Source of the DNA: Myxococcales bacterium
GTDB lineage: Bacteria; Myxococcota_A; Polyangia; Polyangiales; DASUME01
Assembly (NCBI GenBank): GCA_047601445.1
Contig: JASGJH010000001.1
Span: forward strand, 8,864,001-8,928,000
Length of the DNA stretch: 64,000 bases
Direction: 5' to 3'
Below, piece after piece: positions 1,301-13,761 of this stretch. Positions within the stretch are counted from its first letter, which is position 1. The number at the start of each line of letters is the position of its first letter. The position numbers and the translations under genes are program-made. The notes beneath the pieces were generated by a model. It worked only from the letters and a program-made list of their open reading frames with translations. It was not told the origin of the DNA and ran no database searches.

Positions 1301-2785
1301 TCAGAACGCGAAGTCGAGATAGCCGCCGAGCGCGAGGATGCGCAGGTTGTAGGTACCGTTGCCGAGGTCGTAGTCCGAGCTCGCCACGCGCCGCTCGAGG
1401 ATGGTCTGTAGCTGTCCGTCGAGCAGAATGCGCACGTTGTCCGTGAGACGTTGCGATAGGCCGAGCGCCGCGTGCACACGCGTGCCGTCGGGCGACGCCA
1501 TGTCGATGGTGCTATCGGGACTGGCTCCGGTCTCGATGCCGAGCATCCCCCAGACCGCCAGCTCCTCCGAGACCAGGTAGCGCAATCGTGTACGCACGCC
1601 GTAGGTGTCGCGCCAGGCGCGCGCCAGCTTGAGGCCAGTCGACGAGGGCAAACCGAGCATGGGCTGCGCCAGCGAGGGCGACTTGATGCGAACGTCGAAG
1701 TTGTCCACCGAGGACCAGCCCGTGTAGCTGCCTTCGAGGCTCACGTTGACCTGCCGCTCATCGCCCATCTGCTCGCCGAACCCGTAGCGAATGCCGTAGC
1801 GCACCGTGCGCGGCAGCGTGAAGGCAAGCGACGCTTTGCCCTTCACCAGAGCCGGATACTTGAGGCCCTGGCTCTGCAGATCCTGGGTGAAGAATGGATC
1901 GTCCATGTCGAGCGTGAAGTCGCCCCGGAACGTCATCTTGGTGGTGTGCTCGTAGCTCGCCGCCAGCCACAAATCCTTGAGTGGCTGAGCGGTGATACCC
2001 GCGCTGAACGTGAAGCCGTTCGCCACGCCGTTCTTGAAGTGGAAGGGCCGCGCCATGGTGTCGAGCTCGCGTACACCGGGATCGGCGTTGGGACCGAAGC
2101 TGTTGCTCTGGCCGATGGGCGGGCGGGCGAGCGCGTCACCCAGGTCGCTCAAGGTCGCCAGGTCCTGGGTCTTGGCCAGGTCCGCATATCCCATCACGTA
2201 GGAGACGCCGAGACCGATGGAGAGCTCTTCGATAGGCTGATAAGCGATGGTCGGCGTGAACTGGCCTGCCGCGATGAAGGCGTCGGTGAGCTGGAAGCGC
2301 TGCGGACCGTTCTTGGGCAAGTGCAGCATTGCCGCGTAGGGTACGTAGATGCCCAGGCCCACGACCAGCGGCAGATCCCCGAGCTGGGTCGATCCGAAGA
2401 TGCTCGGCACGAGTCCCACGGGTCGATCGCTCACCTCGCGCTCTTTGCCGCGCTTCTTGGGATCCACCAGGCTCGGGTCGATGGGCAGGGCGAAGTCGAG
2501 GGAGTCGCTGTACTGGTAGGTTGCGAAGCGCTCGCGCTGATAGCTCAGTTTGCCGATCAGGATGTTGCCACCGCCGATCACGCGGGTGCCCTTCACGAAG
2601 CCGATGCCCGCCGGGTTCTGTGCGAGTACCGAGGGATCCGTGGTGGTCGTGACGCCGGTGCTGCTCGGCCCCACGCTCGGCGCGGCAAAGCCCGAGGCTT
2701 GGACCTTTTGGAGCGGGCCCGTGAGTGTGAACGCACCCACGGAGAGGGCCGCCAAAATGCTCTTGAGTGAACGCAAACGAACCAC
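1301..2785 (-). CDS. OmpP1/FadL-family outer-membrane channel for hydrophobic compounds
   Basis: Signal peptide, N-terminal NPAG motif (AQNPAGI), GLGIYVPY, amphipathic beta-strands, C-terminal YLDFAF beta-signal. Confidence 0.85.
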   Translation of the reverse strand: MVRLRSLKSILAALSVGAFTLTGPLQKVQASGFAAPSVGPSSTGVTTTTDPSVLAQNPAGIGFVKGTRVIGGGNILIGKLSYQRERFATYQYSDSLDFALPIDPSLVDPKKRGKEREVSDRPVGLVPSIFGSTQLGDLPLVVGLGIYVPYAAMLHLPKNGPQRFQLTDAFIAAGQFTPTIAYQPIEELSIGLGVSYVMGYADLAKTQDLATLSDLGDALARPPIGQSNSFGPNADPGVRELDTMARPFHFKNGVANGFTFSAGITAQPLKDLWLAASYEHTTKMTFRGDFTLDMDDPFFTQDLQSQGLKYPALVKGKASLAFTLPRTVRYGIRYGFGEQMGDERQVNVSLEGSYTGWSSVDNFDVRIKSPSLAQPMLGLPSSTGLKLARAWRDTYGVRTRLRYLVSEELAVWGMLGIETGASPDSTIDMASPDGTRVHAALGLSQRLTDNVRILLDGQLQTILERRVASSDYDLGNGTYNLRILALGGYLDFAF

Positions 2786-2788
2786 CCT

Positions 2789-4531
2789 TCAGCGCACGCG
2801 TGTGATGGTGAGATGCCTTCGATTGGGGCTCGGCTTGCCACCGGCCGTCAGCTTGAACACGGCGCCGGCATCGTCGCTCATGTAGAGCTCCGGATGGTCG
2901 TCGAGCCGCACTTTCTCGTGGTCGGTGTCGCCGTCGAGCGGCAACAGCGAGCTCACCTTGTTGGTGAGCGCGGCGTCGCTGAAGAAGCCGATCTGCGTGT
3001 AGTTGTAGGGGCGCACGGGTTGCCCCTGGTCGTCCACGGCGATGTCGTCCTGATTCACGAAGAACAACCAATCCCCCTGGAGGCTCGCCAGATTGCTGGG
3101 GCTGCTACGGTAGTAGTAGAAGTCCGCCGCGCCCTCGGTGGTGTCGATGATCTCCTCGGCGATATCGAGCAGCGAGTACGGGTTCTGCTGCAGGTTTTGT
3201 CGCATGAGCTGCTCGAGCGTGGCGGTGTCGGTGCCCACCGGGATGTTCTCGAGCTTGAACTCGACGTTGGCAGTGCCTTCGGGCAGGTTGCCGTCGTGCA
3301 AACGCACCTGAGCGATCTCGAGCAGCATGTCCCAGACGTACGAGGACGGCGGCGGCGAACCGAGACCACCTTGCACGGAGATGGTCTGCCATCCCTTCTC
3401 GACCACGGCTTTGAAGATGGGATCGTTCTTGCCGGGCGACGTGTAGCTGACCTCGCTAGAAAGGTCCGAGAAGGCGCGCTGCGCGGCACCGATGAGTACG
3501 CGCTCCAGGGTCCAGGGCGGGAGCTCCCAGGCAGGGGAAGAGCCGATGCCGGTGGGGACGGGCGTGCGACCGCCCTCTACGAAGCCGTCCGACTCCACGA
3601 TGCGGAACGAGAGCTGGTCGATCTTCGGGATGCCCTCCACCAGGCCCTCCACGCGCAACCAGTTGGGATCGTCGAAGTCGAACAGTGCCTTGATCTGACT
3701 GCGCACCGAGTTGACGCTCGTGTCGGAGCCGTTGGTCAGGTCGATGCCCTTGTAGGGCAAGGCGTTCGCGTTGGCGCGCACCGTGATCGCAAAATCGTCG
3801 GTGAGTACGCTGGCACGGGTCTGACCCGCCACGAAGCCCGGATGGGTGACGCCGTTCTTTTCATACGGTCCGAAGCGCTCCCCGAGGCTCACGAAGTCGC
3901 TGGCGACGTCACCCAAGGTGACCGGGATGGCGCCCTGGGCGACCGGGTACATGCCGTCGGGATGCTCCTCGGTGATGGGGCCGGCACGCATGCGCGTGTT
4001 CGGGTGCGTCATGATCACTTGGTCGAGCACCGTCTGAGCCACGATGCGGTCGGACAGGAAGGGATCTTCCACGTTGATATGGAACAGATCCGCCAACACC
4101 TGTTCGGGGGCCACGCCGAGTAGCGGCGCCAGATCGATCAAGCGTTCGATGTCGGTTCCCGTGAGCACCGCGGTGTCGGGTGTCATCGTGAGCAAGGCCT
4201 GCATATTCCGCTCCGCTTGGCCGAGCGTGTTGGGATCGAGGGCGCGGATCGCAGCCAGCGAGTTGTCGAGCAGCTGCGGTGAGCTAGCGCCGCTCGAGAG
4301 ATCCAGATCGAGCAGCCACAGGCGCTCCTGGGCGTCCTTGGGTAGCGCCAAGATGTCGGCGCGGGTCAGGCGCTTCTCGAAGTTGCTCACGTCGAAGCGC
4401 AAGAAGCGCAGCTCCACCTCGCGCGTCTCGCTGACGCCGATCTTGGTAGGCTCGGGGCTCAGCACTGGATCGGGACCTGAGCAAGCACTCAGACCCAACA
4501 CGAACCAGCTCACGGTCAGGGCGCGTCTCAC
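2789..4531 (-). CDS. Lipoprotein of unknown function, paralogue 3 (shared domain only, 580 aa)
   Basis: Lipobox LSAC. Motifs MTPD, THPN, HPGF, WDMLLEIAQVRLHD, ADFYY, HEKV are shared with the two upstream genes. GTGA overlap with the upstream stop. Confidence 0.8.
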   Translation of the reverse strand: MRRALTVSWFVLGLSACSGPDPVLSPEPTKIGVSETREVELRFLRFDVSNFEKRLTRADILALPKDAQERLWLLDLDLSSGASSPQLLDNSLAAIRALDPNTLGQAERNMQALLTMTPDTAVLTGTDIERLIDLAPLLGVAPEQVLADLFHINVEDPFLSDRIVAQTVLDQVIMTHPNTRMRAGPITEEHPDGMYPVAQGAIPVTLGDVASDFVSLGERFGPYEKNGVTHPGFVAGQTRASVLTDDFAITVRANANALPYKGIDLTNGSDTSVNSVRSQIKALFDFDDPNWLRVEGLVEGIPKIDQLSFRIVESDGFVEGGRTPVPTGIGSSPAWELPPWTLERVLIGAAQRAFSDLSSEVSYTSPGKNDPIFKAVVEKGWQTISVQGGLGSPPPSSYVWDMLLEIAQVRLHDGNLPEGTANVEFKLENIPVGTDTATLEQLMRQNLQQNPYSLLDIAEEIIDTTEGAADFYYYRSSPSNLASLQGDWLFFVNQDDIAVDDQGQPVRPYNYTQIGFFSDAALTNKVSSLLPLDGDTDHEKVRLDDHPELYMSDDAGAVFKLTAGGKPSPNRRHLTITRVR

Positions 4532-7164
4532 TGCAACACTCCCGCGGGACTCACCTGCACACCGACGCGGTTGCCGTCGCGCTGCACGATCTCAATCTGG
4601 AACGGTTCACCCTTTTCGTCCGCCGCGTAGTACTTGGCCCCCACGGTGGCGGGCACCTTCTCGTGCGTGGAGTCGTTTGCGCCGCCCAGCGGAGCGAGCG
4701 TGGAGACCTTCTGCGTGAGCGCGGCATCGCCGAAGAAGCCCGGCGTGGGGTAGGCGTAGGCGCCTTCGCTGTCGCCCGCGGCGCGGAACAGGAGCACACC
4801 GTCTGCGCCATCCACCGGCTCGTAGAAGAAGTCTGCGCTCGACGCGGCCAAGCCGAGATCGCCCACGAACAGCTCGGAGAGCTTGGTCTCCTGCTCGGCC
4901 AATCGTGGGCGAAGCTTCTCCACGAGCTGGTCGGCCGTGAGGCCGATCGACAGGTCGTTGAGCGTGAAGGCCATGTCGGCCATGCCCTCGGCCACACCAT
5001 TATCGTGCAGGCGCACCTGGGCGACCTCCATCAGCAGATCCCACGCGTAGATATCGGGCGGCACGTTGCCGATGTTGCCCGCAGTCTCCACGTGCACCCA
5101 ACCGTGGTCCCAGCCGATCACCGCAGCGTCCTTAATGGAGCCCGCGTCGTAGTGGAGCTCGTGCTTGTAGCTGGTGTTGGCATAGGCATCGAAGAACATG
5201 CGGTAGCCGATTTCCACCGTGGCGTGCTCGAAGAACCAGGGACTCACGGCGTAGCCCTGGCTATTGCCGCGATAGAACCCTGGATGCGCCGCGTCCGGAC
5301 TCGCGTACCGGTTGGTGCCGCCTTTGAGCATGGCGCCTGGCGCTTCCTTGAGGCGGATGCGCAGGTTGACCGTGGGCTCGTCCTTCAGGCCCACCACGGA
5401 GAACTGGTCCTCGAGCACGTTGAAGTCCAGCACGCGATCGCCGTTGAGCAGGAAGAAGAAGTCCTTGCTCGAGCGACTCAAGTCGACCGCATCGTACTGC
5501 ACCAGGTTCGAGTGCACGGGCAGCGAGAGCAAGAAGCCCGACTCGAGCACCTCCGAGTAGCTCTGGCCGTCCAAGAAGCCCGGGTGCGCACCAGCGGGGC
5601 CGAAGCGCGGGGCCAGCGTGGTCAGGTTCTGCAGCACGTCGTACAGGCTGATGTCGATGACGTAGGCGCCGTTCGCGTCCTGCTGGATGTTCGGATGGGT
5701 GCCGATCAACTTCTCGGTCAGCACGTCTGCCGCGACGTCCGGGTCGACGATGAAATCCGTGATACCCCTGCCGAGCAGCTGCGAGAGGATGCGCGGCGAG
5801 GGCAGACCGACCGCATTGGCCACGTTGAGGAGATCCTCGATGGACGTGCCGCTCAAGTCCGCCGTGTCGGGCGTCATGTTCAGGATGCGCTGCAAGTTCT
5901 TCTCGGCGCTGCCCCAAGCGGAGGTGTCCACGCCGAAGCGCTCGGGCTCGCGAATGCGCTCCAGCGCCTGTTTGATCGACGGCTTGAGGTCCACCTGCAC
6001 CACCGACAGGCTCTTCTGGTCCGCTTCGTCGAGCAGGTCCTCCAGGTTGAAGCGATCCATCTCGATCTGGGTCTCGCCGGCGTTGCGGCGCGGCTCACCC
6101 AGCCACAGCATGCGCTGGCGAGTCAGCGAGAGATCCACACGGTTCTCGTTGCCCGCTCGATCGCGCGCTACCACCTCGAAGGCGTTGATGCCCTGGGCCA
6201 GGAGCAAGTTGGCCTTCCACGGAGAGAGCGCACCCAGCTCGAGCAGCGCGCCATCGGCCGCCTGGATCTCGACCTGTTCGATGCCACTCGGATCACTGGC
6301 CGTGCCCTCGACCTCCAAAGAAGCGGCGGTCGTCTCGCGCGCACTGGAGGTGACTTCGAGCAGGGGCGGGGTGCTGTCCTGGGTTACCACGAACTGCGCC
6401 ATCGTGCTGCGCTGGTCGGGGTCGCGCGCCTCCACCTCGATGGTGTTCTCCACGTTCTCGGCCAGCGTGAGCGGCAGCGCGAAGGCTCCGTTGGCATCGA
6501 GTTGGGGCGACATGCGAGGGCCGTCCGCGAGGCCCAGAAACACCTCGGCGCCCGCGATCTTGCCGCTGCTGGTGGAGACTTGTCCCGTGACGCAGACCTG
6601 CTTCACCGAGGTGACCGCATCGCGCAGCTCGCTGGTCTCGCTACAGGGATTGCCGCGGTCCACCGCCGCCTGGGAGGGCCTGCGCACGCTGATCCTCAGG
6701 CCCGGCGCCTCACCGCGGTACTCGAGGGCGTAGACGAGCCGGCGCACCCGGGTCTGGTCCTCGGTCTCGACGCGGATCAAGAGGCGGTTGGTGCCATGCG
6801 TGAGCGGGACCTTGAGCCGGAAACGCTGGTCGGGTCCGGGTTCGCCTTCCGAGGCTGCGGGCCGCATGTCCACCGCTTGATCCACGCCGGTGGCGTCCTT
6901 CTCGAGGCGTCCGATGAACACACGCAGCGGCAACCGCGGCTCGGCTTCGGAGTAGGCCGCCACCACGAACTCCGGCACCGCGCCCTCGAAGGTCTCGGAC
7001 AGCTTCGGATGCTCCACCCAGGCATAGAGCCCACCTTCTTCGGTGGGGGTAGAGAGCGAAGTCGGATCACCGTAGTCCCGCGGTGTGAACTCCGAGGCAC
7101 AACCTTGAACTCCCGACACCAGATACGCGCCGAGGAGCAGACGCCACCAAGCCGAACCCATCAC
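4528..7164 (-). CDS. Lipoprotein with Ig-like repeats plus shared domain, paralogue 2 (878 aa)
   Basis: Lipobox VQGC. Ig-like segments (LTLAENVENTIEVEARD, DSTPP, GTASDPSGI, GINAFEVVARDRAGN), then the shared C-terminal domain. Confidence 0.8.
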   Translation of the reverse strand: MMGSAWWRLLLGAYLVSGVQGCASEFTPRDYGDPTSLSTPTEEGGLYAWVEHPKLSETFEGAVPEFVVAAYSEAEPRLPLRVFIGRLEKDATGVDQAVDMRPAASEGEPGPDQRFRLKVPLTHGTNRLLIRVETEDQTRVRRLVYALEYRGEAPGLRISVRRPSQAAVDRGNPCSETSELRDAVTSVKQVCVTGQVSTSSGKIAGAEVFLGLADGPRMSPQLDANGAFALPLTLAENVENTIEVEARDPDQRSTMAQFVVTQDSTPPLLEVTSSARETTAASLEVEGTASDPSGIEQVEIQAADGALLELGALSPWKANLLLAQGINAFEVVARDRAGNENRVDLSLTRQRMLWLGEPRRNAGETQIEMDRFNLEDLLDEADQKSLSVVQVDLKPSIKQALERIREPERFGVDTSAWGSAEKNLQRILNMTPDTADLSGTSIEDLLNVANAVGLPSPRILSQLLGRGITDFIVDPDVAADVLTEKLIGTHPNIQQDANGAYVIDISLYDVLQNLTTLAPRFGPAGAHPGFLDGQSYSEVLESGFLLSLPVHSNLVQYDAVDLSRSSKDFFFLLNGDRVLDFNVLEDQFSVVGLKDEPTVNLRIRLKEAPGAMLKGGTNRYASPDAAHPGFYRGNSQGYAVSPWFFEHATVEIGYRMFFDAYANTSYKHELHYDAGSIKDAAVIGWDHGWVHVETAGNIGNVPPDIYAWDLLMEVAQVRLHDNGVAEGMADMAFTLNDLSIGLTADQLVEKLRPRLAEQETKLSELFVGDLGLAASSADFFYEPVDGADGVLLFRAAGDSEGAYAYPTPGFFGDAALTQKVSTLAPLGGANDSTHEKVPATVGAKYYAADEKGEPFQIEIVQRDGNRVGVQVSPAGVLQ

Positions 7165-9924
7165 TGCACCTTCTTGGACGCGTAGACGCGGATCTCGGTG
7201 GGATCGGCCTCGGCTACGAAGCGCAATCGGTACACCTGGTTGAGATCGTCACGCATGTAGACCGTGGTTTCGCCGGTGGCCAGGCTGAGCTTCTCGTGCG
7301 CGCTGTCGCCGGAGGTCCCGGCGGCGGTGTTGCTGAGCTTGGTGCCCAGGGTTTCGTCGGCGAAGAAGCCGGGCTTCGTGTAGTTGTAGACGCCGCTCGG
7401 CAGCGGATCACCGGCCGCGGCGAAGAACAAGTACGGCTTACTGTCCGCGCCGCGCTTGTAGTAGAAGTCCACCGCGCCGTTGTTCTTCTTGTAGTCGCCG
7501 AGCAGCTTGTCGCTGAGCACGTTGCGCTGCTTCTGCAGCTCGTCGGCGGTGGCGTCGCGGATTTGCGCGGCGGTGAGGCCGACCGGGATGTTGTAGAGCG
7601 TGAAGGCCACGTCGGCAGCACCTTCGGCGATGGTGGTGTTGCCGATATGGTGCAGCGCGTTCTGACCGATACCGAGGATCAGCTCCCAGACGTACTGAGG
7701 GTCGGGCGGATTGCCCAGGCCGGCAACGGAGTAGAACTTGGTCCAGCCCGCTGGATCGGTGCCTTGTCCCACGCTGATGTCAGCCGCCCTGTCGATAAGG
7801 AGCCACGAGTACTTGTTGTAGGTCCGCAGGTTCGCGTACTCGACGAGGGCGGCGCCCGTCAGCAGGTACTCGAGCTGCCACTTGGGCGTGCTCCACACGT
7901 AGGGGAGCGGCTTGGGCTGGCTCGGAGAGTTGTTGGTCATGCACGCGTTGCCCTCGCAGGACGGCACGAGCGCGTCGTTCTCGAGGACCTTCATCTTGAG
8001 GTTGACGGTGGGCGCGGCGGTGAGGCCCTGGATGTCGAACTTGCTGGCGTTCTTGAAGTCGAACTCGAGCACGTCATCGCGGGTCGCACCCGTGGTGTCC
8101 ACCACCAGCGCGATGTAGTCCTTGCCCGGTCGCGTGCCGTCGCCCGACAGGTCGATGCCGTCGAACCACTTGAGGTTGGAGGTCGCTACCAGGGTCATCT
8201 TGAAGTTGGGACCGAACACCACCGAGGTGGTCTGGAAGCTCGGGTCCAGGACGCCGGGGTGCCCACCGGAAGGGCCCAAGAGCGCTGGCAATGTCTTTAG
8301 ATCGTTCATCGCATCGTAGAGCGTGATCGGGATCTTGGCGCCGGGGAGGATCGCAGGATGACTCTGCATCCAGTACTGCTGCAGGGACGAGACCACCGAG
8401 TTGGTGGTGATGATCTCGCGCGTCTTGGGGATCGCAAGCACATCGGCCAGGATCTGGTTGAAGCCGCCGCCGAGGCCCAGCAGGTTCGCGAGCCCTTCGA
8501 GCTCGCCCACGCTGCTGCCCGCCACCATCGCGTTGGCAGGGGTCATGGTCAACAGACGCACGAAGCTGTACTCAGGCGTGTTCTTCCAGTTCGAGCCGTA
8601 GCTCTGGCCCAGAGAAGTGACGGTGCAGTCGTGTTGAGGATCCTTGTTGTCCTGCGTCCACTTCGTGCCACAGCTGGCCTTGATGTTGTTCACCGAGGTT
8701 TGAAGCAAGGTCGTCGTGTCGAGCTGCAATACGCGGATGTCCTTCTGCACGTCGGCCGCGATCACCTCGTTGACGCCCTCCTTGTCGAGGTCGAAGTGCA
8801 GCGTGGGCGGCGCGGTGTCTTCGCGCAGGCGCAGCGGGATGGCGACCTCGTCCGTCCAGGCCGGCTGGAAGGTGTTGAGTACGTGCACGTCGACGCCCGT
8901 GGCGAGGCCGCTCAGGTCGATGGCGCGCACCTCGATTCTGAAGTGGGCCCGGCTTGATCGGTAGGTCCACGTGCCAGGTTTGAAAGCCGTCGTCCGTCTC
9001 GGCGACCACGTACTCGCTCCAGGTGAGCTCGCCCGTGGCGTCCTTGGGGATGCCCACGCGCGCCTTCACCTCGCGCAAGCCCACCGCGTCCGATGCCGTG
9101 CCGGTCACCGTGACGACCGCGGTCGCGATCGTGCTGGCTTCGGCCGGAGCGCTCACGCTCAGCATGGGCGGATCGCGATCGACCTCCGCACGACCGGTCA
9201 GAGTGATGCTGGCCTGGCCCTCGTGTCCGGCGGCGTCGCGCGCGATGAAGGTCAGGACGTTGCTCTCACCAGGCAACAGCGGCACCAGACGCGACCAGCT
9301 GGCGAAGAAGTTGTCCGTCTCGACGAAGCGCTCCTTGAGCAGCTCTCCGTTGCGCAGCACGTCCATCGAGATCACGGCGCGATCGTCCGTCGCCGTACCG
9401 CTCACCAGCACCAGCGCGTGCAAGGGCGCGCTGCCGTCGGGCGGAGCCAACACTTGGACCACGGGCGTGGCATCGTCGGCGCTGTTGCCGGGACCAATCA
9501 AAGCGATGCGATCAGGGTTGCTCTTCTGCTGCGCGACGTCGCGTGCTTCGGCCTCCACGAAGAACATGCCGCCCGGGACCTGACTCTCGATCCACCAGTG
9601 CCGGAAGTTGTCGTCAGTGTTCGCGAGGAGTGCCACGTTGGGGCCCACCTTCACGAACACGCTCGCCACGCCGAGGTCGTCGCTGCTGGTGCCCTCGATG
9701 CGCAGCGGGCTGGTCACGGAGGCACCGGTAGTCGGCGTGGTGATGTGGACCGTCGGCAATGCGTCCTGCGGGCCGGTTGCCGCATCGCTGTGCGGGCCGG
9801 CATCGGAAATCCCGATTCCACCGTCTGGCCGTAGTACCGGCCCTTCCAATTCGACGGCTGCGCACCCGCCAGCGAGGACAAGGGCGGCAAGAGCGGGTGA
9901 AAAGGGGGGGCGCGAGCGGGTCAC
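7161..9924 (-). pseudogene. Lipoprotein with Ig-like repeats plus shared domain, paralogue 1; split by one extra base at ~8936-8945 (possibly a sequencing error; ~920 aa if repaired)
   Basis: ORF 8572..9924 (lipobox AGGC; three repeats of the GT(S/A)xDD..V type) degenerates after KPGPLQ. Removing one base from ccactt-cagaatcgag gives ...GPLQIEVRAIDL, joining ORF 7161..8930. Confidence 0.75.
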
Positions 9925-10049: not shown

Positions 10050-10135
10050 TTCGTGAGCGTAGCGAACCTCGTGGTGGGGTGGGTCCCCGCGCGGCTTTGC
10101 CGCGCGGGGCGGGGAGGGCGCGTGCCCTCCCCGTG
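10050..10135. repeat. Intergenic two-hairpin repeat element, copy A
   Basis: tcgtgagcg..agcgaacctcg.ggtggggtggg leader, then hairpins ccccgcgcggc-ttt-gccgcgcgggg and cggggagggc-gcgt-gccctccccg. Homologous to 20225-20308. Confidence 0.8.
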
Positions 10136-10293: not shown

Positions 10294-10680
10294 ATGGCGA
10301 AGTTTCTGTCGGACGAGTGGTTTGCCAAAGTGCAGCAGATCACCGAAGAGATGGGCGATATCGAGATCCCCGGACCCCTCAAGGATTTGACCCTCAATCT
10401 CACCGTCACGCTGGCCGACGGTACCGAGAAGAAGGTCAACATGAGCGGCGGTCAGTTCGGCCAGGGCCACAAGGCCGGGGCCCCTGTAACCGTGCTTCTA
10501 CCTGCCGATATCGCGAAGAAGATCTTTGTGGATGCCGATCAGCAGGCCGGTATGCAGGCCTTCATGAGCGGTCAGATGCGCGTCGAGGGCGACGTGACGA
10601 AGCTCATGGTCCTGCAGACCGTGCAGCCCAGCGACGACCTCAAGGACCTGATGGCGGACATCCGCGATCAGACCGACTGA
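10294..10680 (+). CDS. SCP2 (sterol carrier protein-2) lipid-binding domain protein
   Basis: FLSDEW N-terminus, MQAFMSGQMRVEGDVTKLM motif, AAGGAG RBS. Confidence 0.85.
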   Translation: MAKFLSDEWFAKVQQITEEMGDIEIPGPLKDLTLNLTVTLADGTEKKVNMSGGQFGQGHKAGAPVTVLLPADIAKKIFVDADQQAGMQAFMSGQMRVEGDVTKLMVLQTVQPSDDLKDLMADIRDQTD

Positions 10681-11926: not shown

Positions 11927-13123
11927 CTAAGGCGTCGCGGCCAGTGCCGCACAACGGCCCGCCACGTGTTGCGCGTGCACCCCGTCCGGATAGCGCGCCA
12001 GGTAGCGATTGCGCGCGCTCTCGCACGCCCGGCGATCCCCGAGCGCCTCGTGAGCCAGAACCAGGCGCGCCAGCGCGTCCTCGGCGAAGGCCCGGCGCGC
12101 ATCGAGTCTGAGCGCGCGCTCGAGGGCCTCGGCGCCACCCCTGAGGTCGCCCAGCGAGTCCATGCGGATGCGGCCGAGCTCGAACGAGGAGAAGGCAGCG
12201 CGTCGGTCCTTGGGGTAGTCGTTCACCAGCTCGGCGTAGATCTCCGCGGCTTCGCGCAGTCGACCCAGTCGGCGCGCGGCGTTGCCCTGCTCGAAGAGGA
12301 GCAGCGCCGCAGCCTCCTGTTGAGCCCGCGCCTGCTCGCGCTCGCGCGCTTCGGCGGCGCGTGCACGCCGCCGCGCGCGCTTGCTCAGCTTGCGCGCGCC
12401 CGTCCCGCTCCCCTCCCGCGCGCTGTCGACCGCGTCGCCTTCGTCCGCGTTCACATCGCCGTCCACATCGCCCGCGAGCTGGCCCACGTGGTCGTCGAGT
12501 TGCTCGAGCACCGGCTCGGCAGCCACCTGCGGCTCCGCCACGAACGTCGACCAGTGTTCGCCCTCCGAGAGCTGCACCGCCGTGGCGCCCCTGCGATGCA
12601 CCTCGACCGAGCCCTCTTCCACGTCGACGCGGATCTTCTCGCCCCCGGCGCTCGGGCTGCGACGCACGCGGAACTGCGTGCCTGTCACCCGCACCTCCAC
12701 CTCACCGAGCTCCACGCTGAAGCGACGCGACCGTCGCTTGGCCACGTCGAAGCGCGCGCTGCCGGTGCGGATGCTGAGCTTCACCGCCCCCGGCTGGCTG
12801 CTCAAGAGCTCCACTTCCGAGCGCGGCTCGAGCTCGATCAGCGTGCCCTCGGCGAGGCTAAAGTTCACCGGCGCATCGTCGCTCGTGACGAGCGCACCGG
12901 CCCACACGGACGGCGTCTCGGTGCGGGCGCTCGGCCACAGCCACAGACCGGCCACGGCGCACGCGGCGAGCACGACGCCTCCCCAACGCAGCGCGCGCAG
13001 GGCCTGGGCGCGTCGCGCTCCGTGCAGCCCCTCGGCGATGCGATCCCACTGGGCATCCAGGCGGCCCTTGCGCTGTTCGGGAACCACGTAGCTGGCGTGG
13101 TTCTTGGGGACCTCGTGGTTCAT
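11927..13123 (-). CDS. FecR-domain anti-sigma-like membrane protein with C-terminal TPR-like region
   Basis: TM helix, then GSARFDV and VRVTGTQFRV...VEEGSVEV (FecR), then TPR-like helices ending YLARYPDG. ATGA overlap with the sigma gene. Confidence 0.8.
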   Translation of the reverse strand: MNHEVPKNHASYVVPEQRKGRLDAQWDRIAEGLHGARRAQALRALRWGGVVLAACAVAGLWLWPSARTETPSVWAGALVTSDDAPVNFSLAEGTLIELEPRSEVELLSSQPGAVKLSIRTGSARFDVAKRRSRRFSVELGEVEVRVTGTQFRVRRSPSAGGEKIRVDVEEGSVEVHRRGATAVQLSEGEHWSTFVAEPQVAAEPVLEQLDDHVGQLAGDVDGDVNADEGDAVDSAREGSGTGARKLSKRARRRARAAEAREREQARAQQEAAALLLFEQGNAARRLGRLREAAEIYAELVNDYPKDRRAAFSSFELGRIRMDSLGDLRGGAEALERALRLDARRAFAEDALARLVLAHEALGDRRACESARNRYLARYPDGVHAQHVAGRCAALAATP

Positions 13124-13761
13124 GGGCCCGGCTCCCGCGCGCTCGGCGTCGCCACCGCGAGCACGCGCTCGGCGGCCGCCAGGCGCCGCTTCACGGTCGA
13201 GAGCGAGATGCCCAGGGTCTCGGCCGTCTCCGGCAGGCTCATGCCTTCCACACGGTGGAGCACGAGCGAGAGCCGCACCTCGTGGTGCATCGCATCGAGA
13301 CACGAATAGATGCGGGAGAGCTCGGCGCGCGCGTCCGGTGGCGCATCGCTCGAGAGCACCACATCGGGATCGATGGGGGTGCTGCGCCGGATTCCGAGCC
13401 GATTGAGCAGGGCCCGCCGGCGCAGGCGCTTGCTCGCCGTACGCACCACGATGGAACCCAGCCAGGACGCGAAGGCTTGCGGGTTCTCCAGGCGATGCAG
13501 GTTCTTGAGGGCCTCGAGGAAGCTATCCTGGACCAGATCGTCGACCTCGGAGTCGCGCCCCAGCACCCGGAAGGCCAACCCGTTGACCATGCGGGCATAG
13601 CGCCGGAACAGCGCTTCCTGAGCCCACGCTTCGCCTTGCCGAGCTGCGCCCACCAAGGCGGCGTCGGTTGGACCGGGGTTGCCTCCGGGCAAGCTCTTGA
13701 GGGCGCGCACCACGTGAGTTTGTACCACTGGCGGCCGGCGCCGGTTCACGGAGGGCCCCAA
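13120..13761 (-). CDS. ECF RNA polymerase sigma factor (true start may be slightly downstream)
   Basis: DDLVQDSF, FASWL and region-4 HTH (EGMSLPETAETLGISLSTVKRRL). Confidence 0.9.
   Translation of the reverse strand: MGPSVNRRRPPVVQTHVVRALKSLPGGNPGPTDAALVGAARQGEAWAQEALFRRYARMVNGLAFRVLGRDSEVDDLVQDSFLEALKNLHRLENPQAFASWLGSIVVRTASKRLRRRALLNRLGIRRSTPIDPDVVLSSDAPPDARAELSRIYSCLDAMHHEVRLSLVLHRVEGMSLPETAETLGISLSTVKRRLAAAERVLAVATPSAREPGP

Follow-up and report, generated by a model that had tools for sequence, protein, structure and literature searches.

A self-contained Myxococcota gene module combining an unnamed lipoprotein family with a dedicated FadL subfamily

FadL channels tend to be regarded as pores that work alone, and the way in which cells draw very insoluble compounds into such channels is an open question. 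Does a FadL-type barrel always act alone, or can it be bound to partners of its own? We addressed this with a cluster of four minus-strand genes at positions 1301-9924 of a 64,000-nucleotide stretch of a Myxococcales bacterium genome (GCA_047601445.1, contig JASGJH010000001.1; "the window" denotes this whole stretch), in which three lipoprotein genes, A, B and C, are followed by a barrel gene. We found that the cluster is a real module, self-contained and reciprocally conserved, in which lipoproteins of a family without a name are paired with a FadL subfamily dedicated to them. The gene layout given by the original prediction, which had been made from the sequence alone, was confirmed: neighbouring genes overlap by GTGA at 7161-7164 and at 4528-4531, 3 bp separate gene C from the barrel gene, and the translated open reading frames (ORFs) of genes A, B and C carry lipoboxes AGGC, VQGC and LSAC. 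The 5' part of gene A (8945-9924) encodes a lipoprotein signal (Cys21 at 9862-9864) and a stalk of ~315 residues with about three immunoglobulin (Ig)-like Big_7 domains (three stretches, E 2.7e-18), and its 3' part (7161-8936) the type-A core (core match 7164-8927). Gene B (4528-7164, 878 residues) carries a lipoprotein signal with Cys22, a ~320-residue stalk containing an Ig-like Glucodextran_B match (E 1.3e-8) and a type-B core at 4543-6114, and gene C (2789-4531, 580 residues) has its lipoprotein cysteine at position 17 and a core with no Ig stalk. The barrel gene (1301-2785, 494 residues) encodes a predicted outer-membrane barrel of the FadL/OmpP1 family, matching PF03349 (OmpP1/FadL/TodX) with E 6.2e-29 and 101.2 bits against a cut-off of 29.7.

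Homology searches bore out the expectation that the core shared by the three lipoproteins is linked to FadL genes. In an even sample of 400 genomes of the phylum, strong core matches occurred in 30 (one further weak match, in G044, was dropped), and the barrel lay next to a core in 28 of them, the other two ending at contig edges. Reciprocally, a profile built from the operon barrels and run on 350 genomes, presumably G001-G350 of the same set, placed the barrel subfamily in 26 of 350 genomes, comprising 26 of the 27 core-positive genomes and 0 of the 323 core-negative ones. Two barrels were present in each of two genomes with two barrel-linked operons. Metagenome loci fetched by the barrel gave the same picture, as 41 of 57 had an adjacent core, 16 were at contig edges and none was unlinked. 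Among 46 core loci from GTDB, the barrel was adjacent in 29, nine were cut by contig ends and eight were unlinked; five unlinked loci with a lone type-A core were followed up, and each of their genomes has a barrel and further cores at another site, where the two are neighbours in four genomes and lie about 8 kb apart in one. Collectively, these observations tie the core and one FadL subfamily to each other across several classes of Myxococcota.

Carriers in GTDB bore titles such as Polyangiales, Nannocystaceae, Myxococcales and Bradymonadia, besides similar names and a few entries without assignment, and cultured organisms are among them, namely Enhygromyxa salina, Nannocystis radixulma and three Sorangium strains. 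Eight of nine other genomes of the genus carry cores, and a search of plasmids gave no core match. A full HMMER scan returned 288 core representatives at E 0.001 or better, which carry no taxonomy, and the GTDB scan used two short patterns. G106 and G116 each have two barrel-linked operons of different architecture. At locus L065, genes A and B are split by three unrelated genes (a pectinacetylesterase, an aldehyde dehydrogenase and an unknown), and the locus contains neither C nor a barrel.

The core itself proved as hard to place as the original prediction had held. Genes A, B and C do share the colinear motif series that had been noticed, over ~530 residues and with 32-33% identity to gene C, and these three are the only core copies in their own genome. 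Scanning the window genes against Pfam and NCBIfam matched the Ig domains of A and B and PF03349 in the barrel and left the core unmatched, and none of 16 core homologues fell in any Pfam or NCBIfam family, apart from two weak Ig matches. No meaningful sequence match emerged from the PDB either: polyubiquitin rows in the profile search were summed weak repeats at profile positions 767-831, and the remaining matches belonged to the Ig stalks. A feature search of the ESM Atlas with the core gave no usable match, the Atlas's own models being poor. Some homologues are named "acetyltransferase" by NCBI and other members hypothetical or lipoprotein; the former name appears unsupported, as no acetyltransferase model in NCBIfam or Pfam matched any of the 16 homologues, five so-named ones included. 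We found no description of the core family in the literature searched, which omits most subscription papers and all supplements.

Gene A had also been described as one ORF, and this was not upheld. ORF 9924-8572 (450 residues) holds the lipobox and Ig repeats followed by an out-of-frame tail, ORF 8930-7161 (589 residues) holds the core in another frame, and alignment with loci L060 and L033 locates one extra base at about 8937-8944. In five genomes of the same genus the type-A core sits in an open frame of 931-944 residues, and G+C content at third codon positions is 0.84 and 0.90 on the two sides of the break. Comparison with 20 stretches of G407 plus L060 revealed that 4 of 128 orthologues change frame in the window assembly, gene A included. 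Because relatives' copies are intact and other such breaks occur in this assembly, the break is probably a sequencing or assembly error, with recent pseudogenisation as the alternative; a programmed frameshift was rejected because relatives carry a single continuous frame. The three other frame changes, near 5923315, 7907410 and 9033370 of G000:C1 relative to a same-genus genome, suggest residual indel errors in the assembly.

The prediction of three paralogs with stalks of different length was supported by both a core tree and gene architecture. A FastTree phylogeny of 128 cores with a midpoint root separated position-specific clades A, B and C (support for the C clade 1.0), and median core identity was 38-44% within types versus 30-32% between them. 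These comparisons resolve A, B and C as three apparently ancient, persistent core types with different stalks. Gene orders included A-B-C-barrel, barrel-A-C, A-C-barrel and A-C-C-barrel, with type C in every operon and type B lost in several lineages. Mature C spans 542-579 residues with its core near the lipid anchor, the A and B stalks measure about 140-355 residues, and A in operons that lack B has instead a linker of 28-72 residues. Divergent operons at L084, L086, L091 and L098 have first two cores with shortened or diverged C-terminal domains, and the B gene of L086 is in pieces.

We then considered where these lipoproteins would reside. A strict lipobox pattern, which missed the visible box of the window's gene B, called 98 of 119 genes (A 43/50, B 16/21, C 39/48; rows include close relatives), and at the +2 position Lys occurred in 0 of 98 and Asp in 1 of 98. 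In Myxococcus xanthus, +2 Lys is reported to have marked 8 of 12 inner-membrane lipoproteins (PMC3222651). Based on these +2 residues and the M. xanthus rule, A, B and C likely lack inner-membrane retention signals and reside at the outer membrane, so that of the surface or periplasmic complex originally proposed, the outer-membrane location stands as likely.

To describe the core structurally we used an AlphaFold2 model of mature C built from 150 sequences, which was confident (predicted local distance difference test, pLDDT, 94.8; predicted template modelling score 0.88). Foldseek returned no match to this model at E 0.001 or better in the PDB or among viral models. VIA-align placed six HmuY-family lipoproteins among its top seven rows, the best being 3h8t (Z 8.1, root-mean-square deviation 2.8, 114 of 182 residues aligned); the HmuY-family alignments cover 108-143 residues with Z of 8.1 or less, a level that the tool says may reflect a common arrangement. 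The match spans model residues 17-564 and therefore indicates that the C model holds a discontinuous beta-sandwich. By sequence, Pfam gave no HmuY (PF14064) match, and HHalign against 10 myxobacterial HmuY domains gave a probability of 1.4%. Compared with the HmuY family (HmuY, PinO, BfrB, Tfo) and the DUF4466 protein 4ei0, about 400 inserted residues are unmatched and the likeness has no sequence-profile support. Rows for class II fusion proteins and FHA domains (Z 5.0 or less) were set aside as common sandwich topology.

Fold searches covered the whole C model and residues 200-470, with the helical region 85-200 searched only as part of the former. Folded alone, residues 200-470 reached pLDDT 93.4, with best Z of 2.8 and 2.1 in two fold searches and no Foldseek match; against TULIP, START and Bet v1 folds, Takeout (Z 2.5) and two helix-grip proteins (Z 2.3-2.6) stood among noise rows, and the excised piece is not a clean domain. 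That it matched poorly does not establish a new fold, since co-variation pairs strands 260-265 and 292-304 with the C-terminal domain. Co-variation among 354 sequences (effective 247) paired 260-265 and 298-304 with C-terminal strands, 54 with 248-250, and 126-175 with 233 and 344-409. Overall, the modelled fold is confident, yet only its beta-sandwich resembles known folds, and most of a core unnamed in Pfam and NCBIfam is unmatched among solved structures. From the co-variation we infer three lobes in C: a sandwich base, a long beta/helix stalk and a helical head containing the invariant residues H176, D208, H230 and E343.

What, then, would such a module do? The lipoproteins and the barrel probably work together at the outer membrane. 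Our preferred reading, to which we give not quite even chances, is that lipoproteins assembled at the surface on top of a passive FadL channel capture a hydrophobic solute from outside and import it; surface exposure, a heteromer, a docking site, transport and a ligand are all things that we infer here. The barrel would sit in the outer membrane, and short-tethered C would dock onto its enlarged extracellular loops. A and B, whose cores hang on long tethers (Ig stalks or flexible linkers of ~50 residues) but are of the same kind, would combine with C into a mixed complex built from two or three specialised subunits. This assembly may capture a poorly soluble hydrophobic compound outside the cell and hand it to the barrel, which would let it out laterally into the membrane in the manner of FadL channels and with no energy from TonB. 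The whole would be a passive, hydrophobic-solute counterpart of SusC/SusD, with surface lipoproteins capturing a solute for an adjacent barrel, although the proteins are unrelated and the SusC/SusD barrel is 22-stranded and TonB-dependent whereas FadL-type barrels are 14-stranded and passive.

Two published systems offer precedents for separate parts of this proposal. For uptake, AupA of Marinobacter is described as needing its co-operonic partner AupB for alkane uptake (PMC5989066), a role that was tested; for docking without transport, the FadL homologue BamG is reported to hold the surface lipoprotein BamH on its extracellular part (PMC12578637, PMC12611786). As in our module, a FadL-like barrel there shares an operon with a partner whose family is unknown, and the pair is required for uptake of a poorly soluble compound, as we propose for the module; AupB differs in being mainly inner-membrane associated, single and reported from marine Gammaproteobacteria, and we liken the two by description only. 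A fuller version of our proposal is doubtful, though conceivable: a TonB-independent machine in which a mixed trimer (A-B-C, or A-C-C or 2:1 where B is lost) of largely new fold would sit on the outer loops and funnel lipids from membranes, micelles or prey into its dedicated FadL channel, as one case of a wider myxobacterial habit of lipoprotein-partnered FadL barrels.

Several points weigh against solute import by a surface assembly or qualify the evidence in its favour. The sorting rule used above comes from a distant myxobacterium and does not distinguish the surface face from the periplasmic one. The proposed co-folding of cores with the barrel was run for C plus barrel, and gave 0.34 versus 0.00 for the best control, with runs agreeing in at least 80% of contacts and a partner pLDDT of 81-83; at 0.60 or under, 18 of 157 solved complexes reached the mark, as did both of the mismatches that passed out of 215. 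The tool describes scores in the range of 0.34 as wrong in most cases except where a guess was already likely, and no interface is given. This prediction supports physical contact between C and the barrel weakly. Conservation across 28 barrel rows was highest in the outer loops (0.66, with 47/186 columns reaching at least 90%), followed by the hatch (0.56, 4/36) and strands (0.50, 16/211), and lowest in the periplasmic turns (0.31, 0/31); the loop signal is ambiguous, as it may reflect substrate capture alone, the loop boundaries were set by hand, and the control FadL families had too few orthologues (6/200 and 0/200) to provide a comparison. The BamH-binding loops of BamG, moreover, are described as not conserved (PMC12578637), and FadL homologues can be pure scaffolds, as BamG and PorV are.

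Gene context gives no ligand clue either, and this too counts against import. Lipid genes flanking the module are sporadic. A sterol ligand, which had been suggested for testing, gained no support from co-occurrence: oxidosqualene-cyclase-like genes (sterol synthesis) do not track the module (6/30 module genomes versus 43/370 others), nor do KshA-like genes (aerobic sterol breakdown; 8/30 versus 83/370), in counts where related genomes are not independent and where, with one cyclase match passing the curated cut-off, E 1e-100 served as proxy.

In the main rival the barrel is a scaffold: it would anchor or display A, B and C as an assembly on the surface, whether adhesin, receptor or canopy, or assist in its export, and no solute would pass. 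We regard this as unlikely, though it has structural precedent in BamG for BamH (PMC12578637, PMC12611786) and PorV for type IX secretion cargo, and the Ig stalks, the conserved barrel loops, the many other FadL-like genes of this genome that abut lipoprotein-like genes and the failure to find metabolic neighbours all fit it. The BamG model NF053685 matched the barrel weakly as well (E 0.0047), at 16 bits against a cut-off of 250. However, the best PDB matches of the barrel subfamily profile are FadL of Escherichia coli and Pseudomonas (E 4e-21 to 1e-17; 3dwo, E 4.4e-21), and the NPA motif is kept, with N27 and P28 invariant in 36 rows. This motif lies at mature positions 27-29 versus 33-35 in E. 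coli FadL, six residues nearer the inferred mature start, and the subfamily therefore appears to lack the N-terminal extension of 10-12 residues that in BamG runs through the lateral opening and fills it (PMC12578637, PMC12611786). The patchy distribution in 30 of 400 genomes is likewise unlike a core biogenesis role.

Comparison with each FadL system sharpens this picture. Whole-barrel homology, the NPA motif, an unextended N-terminus and a C-terminal Phe, with which the window protein ends, are shared with FadL/OmpP1/TodX proteins such as E. coli FadL and Pseudomonas aeruginosa FadL (3dwo). E. coli FadL is described as working alone (PMC5989066), whereas the module subfamily has a conserved insertion of ~30 residues in loop 1 and was never found without lipoproteins in the samples searched. 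BamG-BamH of the Bacteroidota beta-barrel assembly machinery likewise joins a FadL-family barrel to a lipoprotein, with BamH docked extracellularly in solved structures; the module differs in its apparently unextended N-terminus, its conserved rather than variable loops, its patchy presence, its two or three paralogous partners of another family, and the lack of bamA among its recurring neighbours. A structure would either uncover a new architecture for uptake or show that FadL barrels have been put to use independently, for a second time, as scaffolds for lipoproteins.

Another explanation is that the assembly is a surface enzyme coupled to the channel, in which a metal or catalytic site in the helical head (H176, D208, H230, E343) would free a hydrophobic product from a larger substrate for import. 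These four residues are 98-100% conserved across all three types, within a wider set (H176, D208, H230, E313, E343, W400) conserved at 96-100% in every type, with D470 at 95-100%, and co-variation puts 171-175 near 233 and 344-348 (z 5.6-7.5), a signal near the noise floor. Of the four histidines that the original prediction had listed as conserved, H176 and H230 are invariant in all types and H412 (80/100/100% in A/B/C) and H538 (84/86/91%) are not. The "acetyltransferase" label would then be a garbled hint, and other FadL-like genes of this genome adjoin a pectinacetylesterase-family gene or share a cluster with one of a glycosidase family. Yet our searches gave no enzyme family or fold match, no family model backs the label, the histidines fall within HP and GHPG turns, where their role may be structural, and all three types keep the residues with no split into active and inactive copies, leaving this explanation improbable.

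An inward-facing arrangement resembling AupB is quite improbable, in which the lipoproteins would pull a compound from the outer membrane once the barrel had released it laterally, and hand it on via the stalked subunits in the direction of the inner membrane. Ig tethers of 300+ residues or ~50-residue linkers on A and B could span the periplasm, AupAB is a precedent (PMC5989066), and most proteobacterial lipoproteins are stated to face the periplasm (PMC12578637). Opposing this are the +2 residues with no inner-membrane signal, the short, unconserved periplasmic turns of the barrel, and fold relatives that are surface lipoproteins. Passive haem or porphyrin capture by the HmuY-like domain and histidines is most improbable despite the fold matches and conserved histidines, given the partial, possibly generic alignments, the low profile probability, invariant histidines that lie in the inserted region outside the sandwich, and the fact that HmuY works with TonB-dependent receptors whereas the partner here is a FadL barrel.

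The window's own genome contains 14 FadL-like loci, 11 of them with matches over the PF03349 cut-off. Because about eight other FadL-like genes abut exported or lipoprotein-like genes by crude gene calls, barrel-plus-partner operons appear to be a theme in this genome. Genes for ~1200-residue lipoprotein-like proteins with no Pfam family each adjoin a FadL-like gene at L099:1665-5306, L100:995-4669, L101:2132-5716 and L102:2192-5878, where the barrels are 45-82% identical to the first, and they would form a second unnamed FadL-partner family. The one ~1200-residue protein that we compared with the core was unrelated (probability 0.3%). At L103-L106, FadL-like genes lie beside, respectively, a 233-residue lipoprotein; a 555-residue protein followed by a melibiase/GH31-like one; a pectinacetylesterase-family protein; and a 342-residue exported protein. 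The genome also encodes an oxidosqualene-cyclase-like protein (G000:C1:4800353-4802227; E 3e-213, below the curated cut-off).

Beside the module, no fifth gene conserved across lineages was found among the loci surveyed. The commonest neighbour was a histidine-kinase cluster just downstream of the barrel at 15 loci (L034, L076, L163-L209), with PAS and HisKA domains in the one scanned. Divergent from gene A, an SCP2-family (sterol carrier-like) gene lies at 10294-10680 on the plus strand (PF02036, E 3.5e-4, at the cut-off); of 47 loci it occurs at three, namely the window, L033 and L060, which makes it a local neighbour outside the conserved module. An M19 dipeptidase gene follows it, and L033 and L060 retain both. 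A search for sigma-70-like promoters gave none, and terminator-like sites were at chance level; by eye, a GC-rich hairpin-like stretch lies near 10080-10110. A convergent plus-strand lipoprotein-like gene that starts before the window occupies 105-1265, has no Pfam family and is not kept beside the module. At 11927-13761 on the minus strand is an extracytoplasmic function sigma factor with a FecR/TPR anti-sigma-like partner, a pair that is ordinary for myxobacteria.

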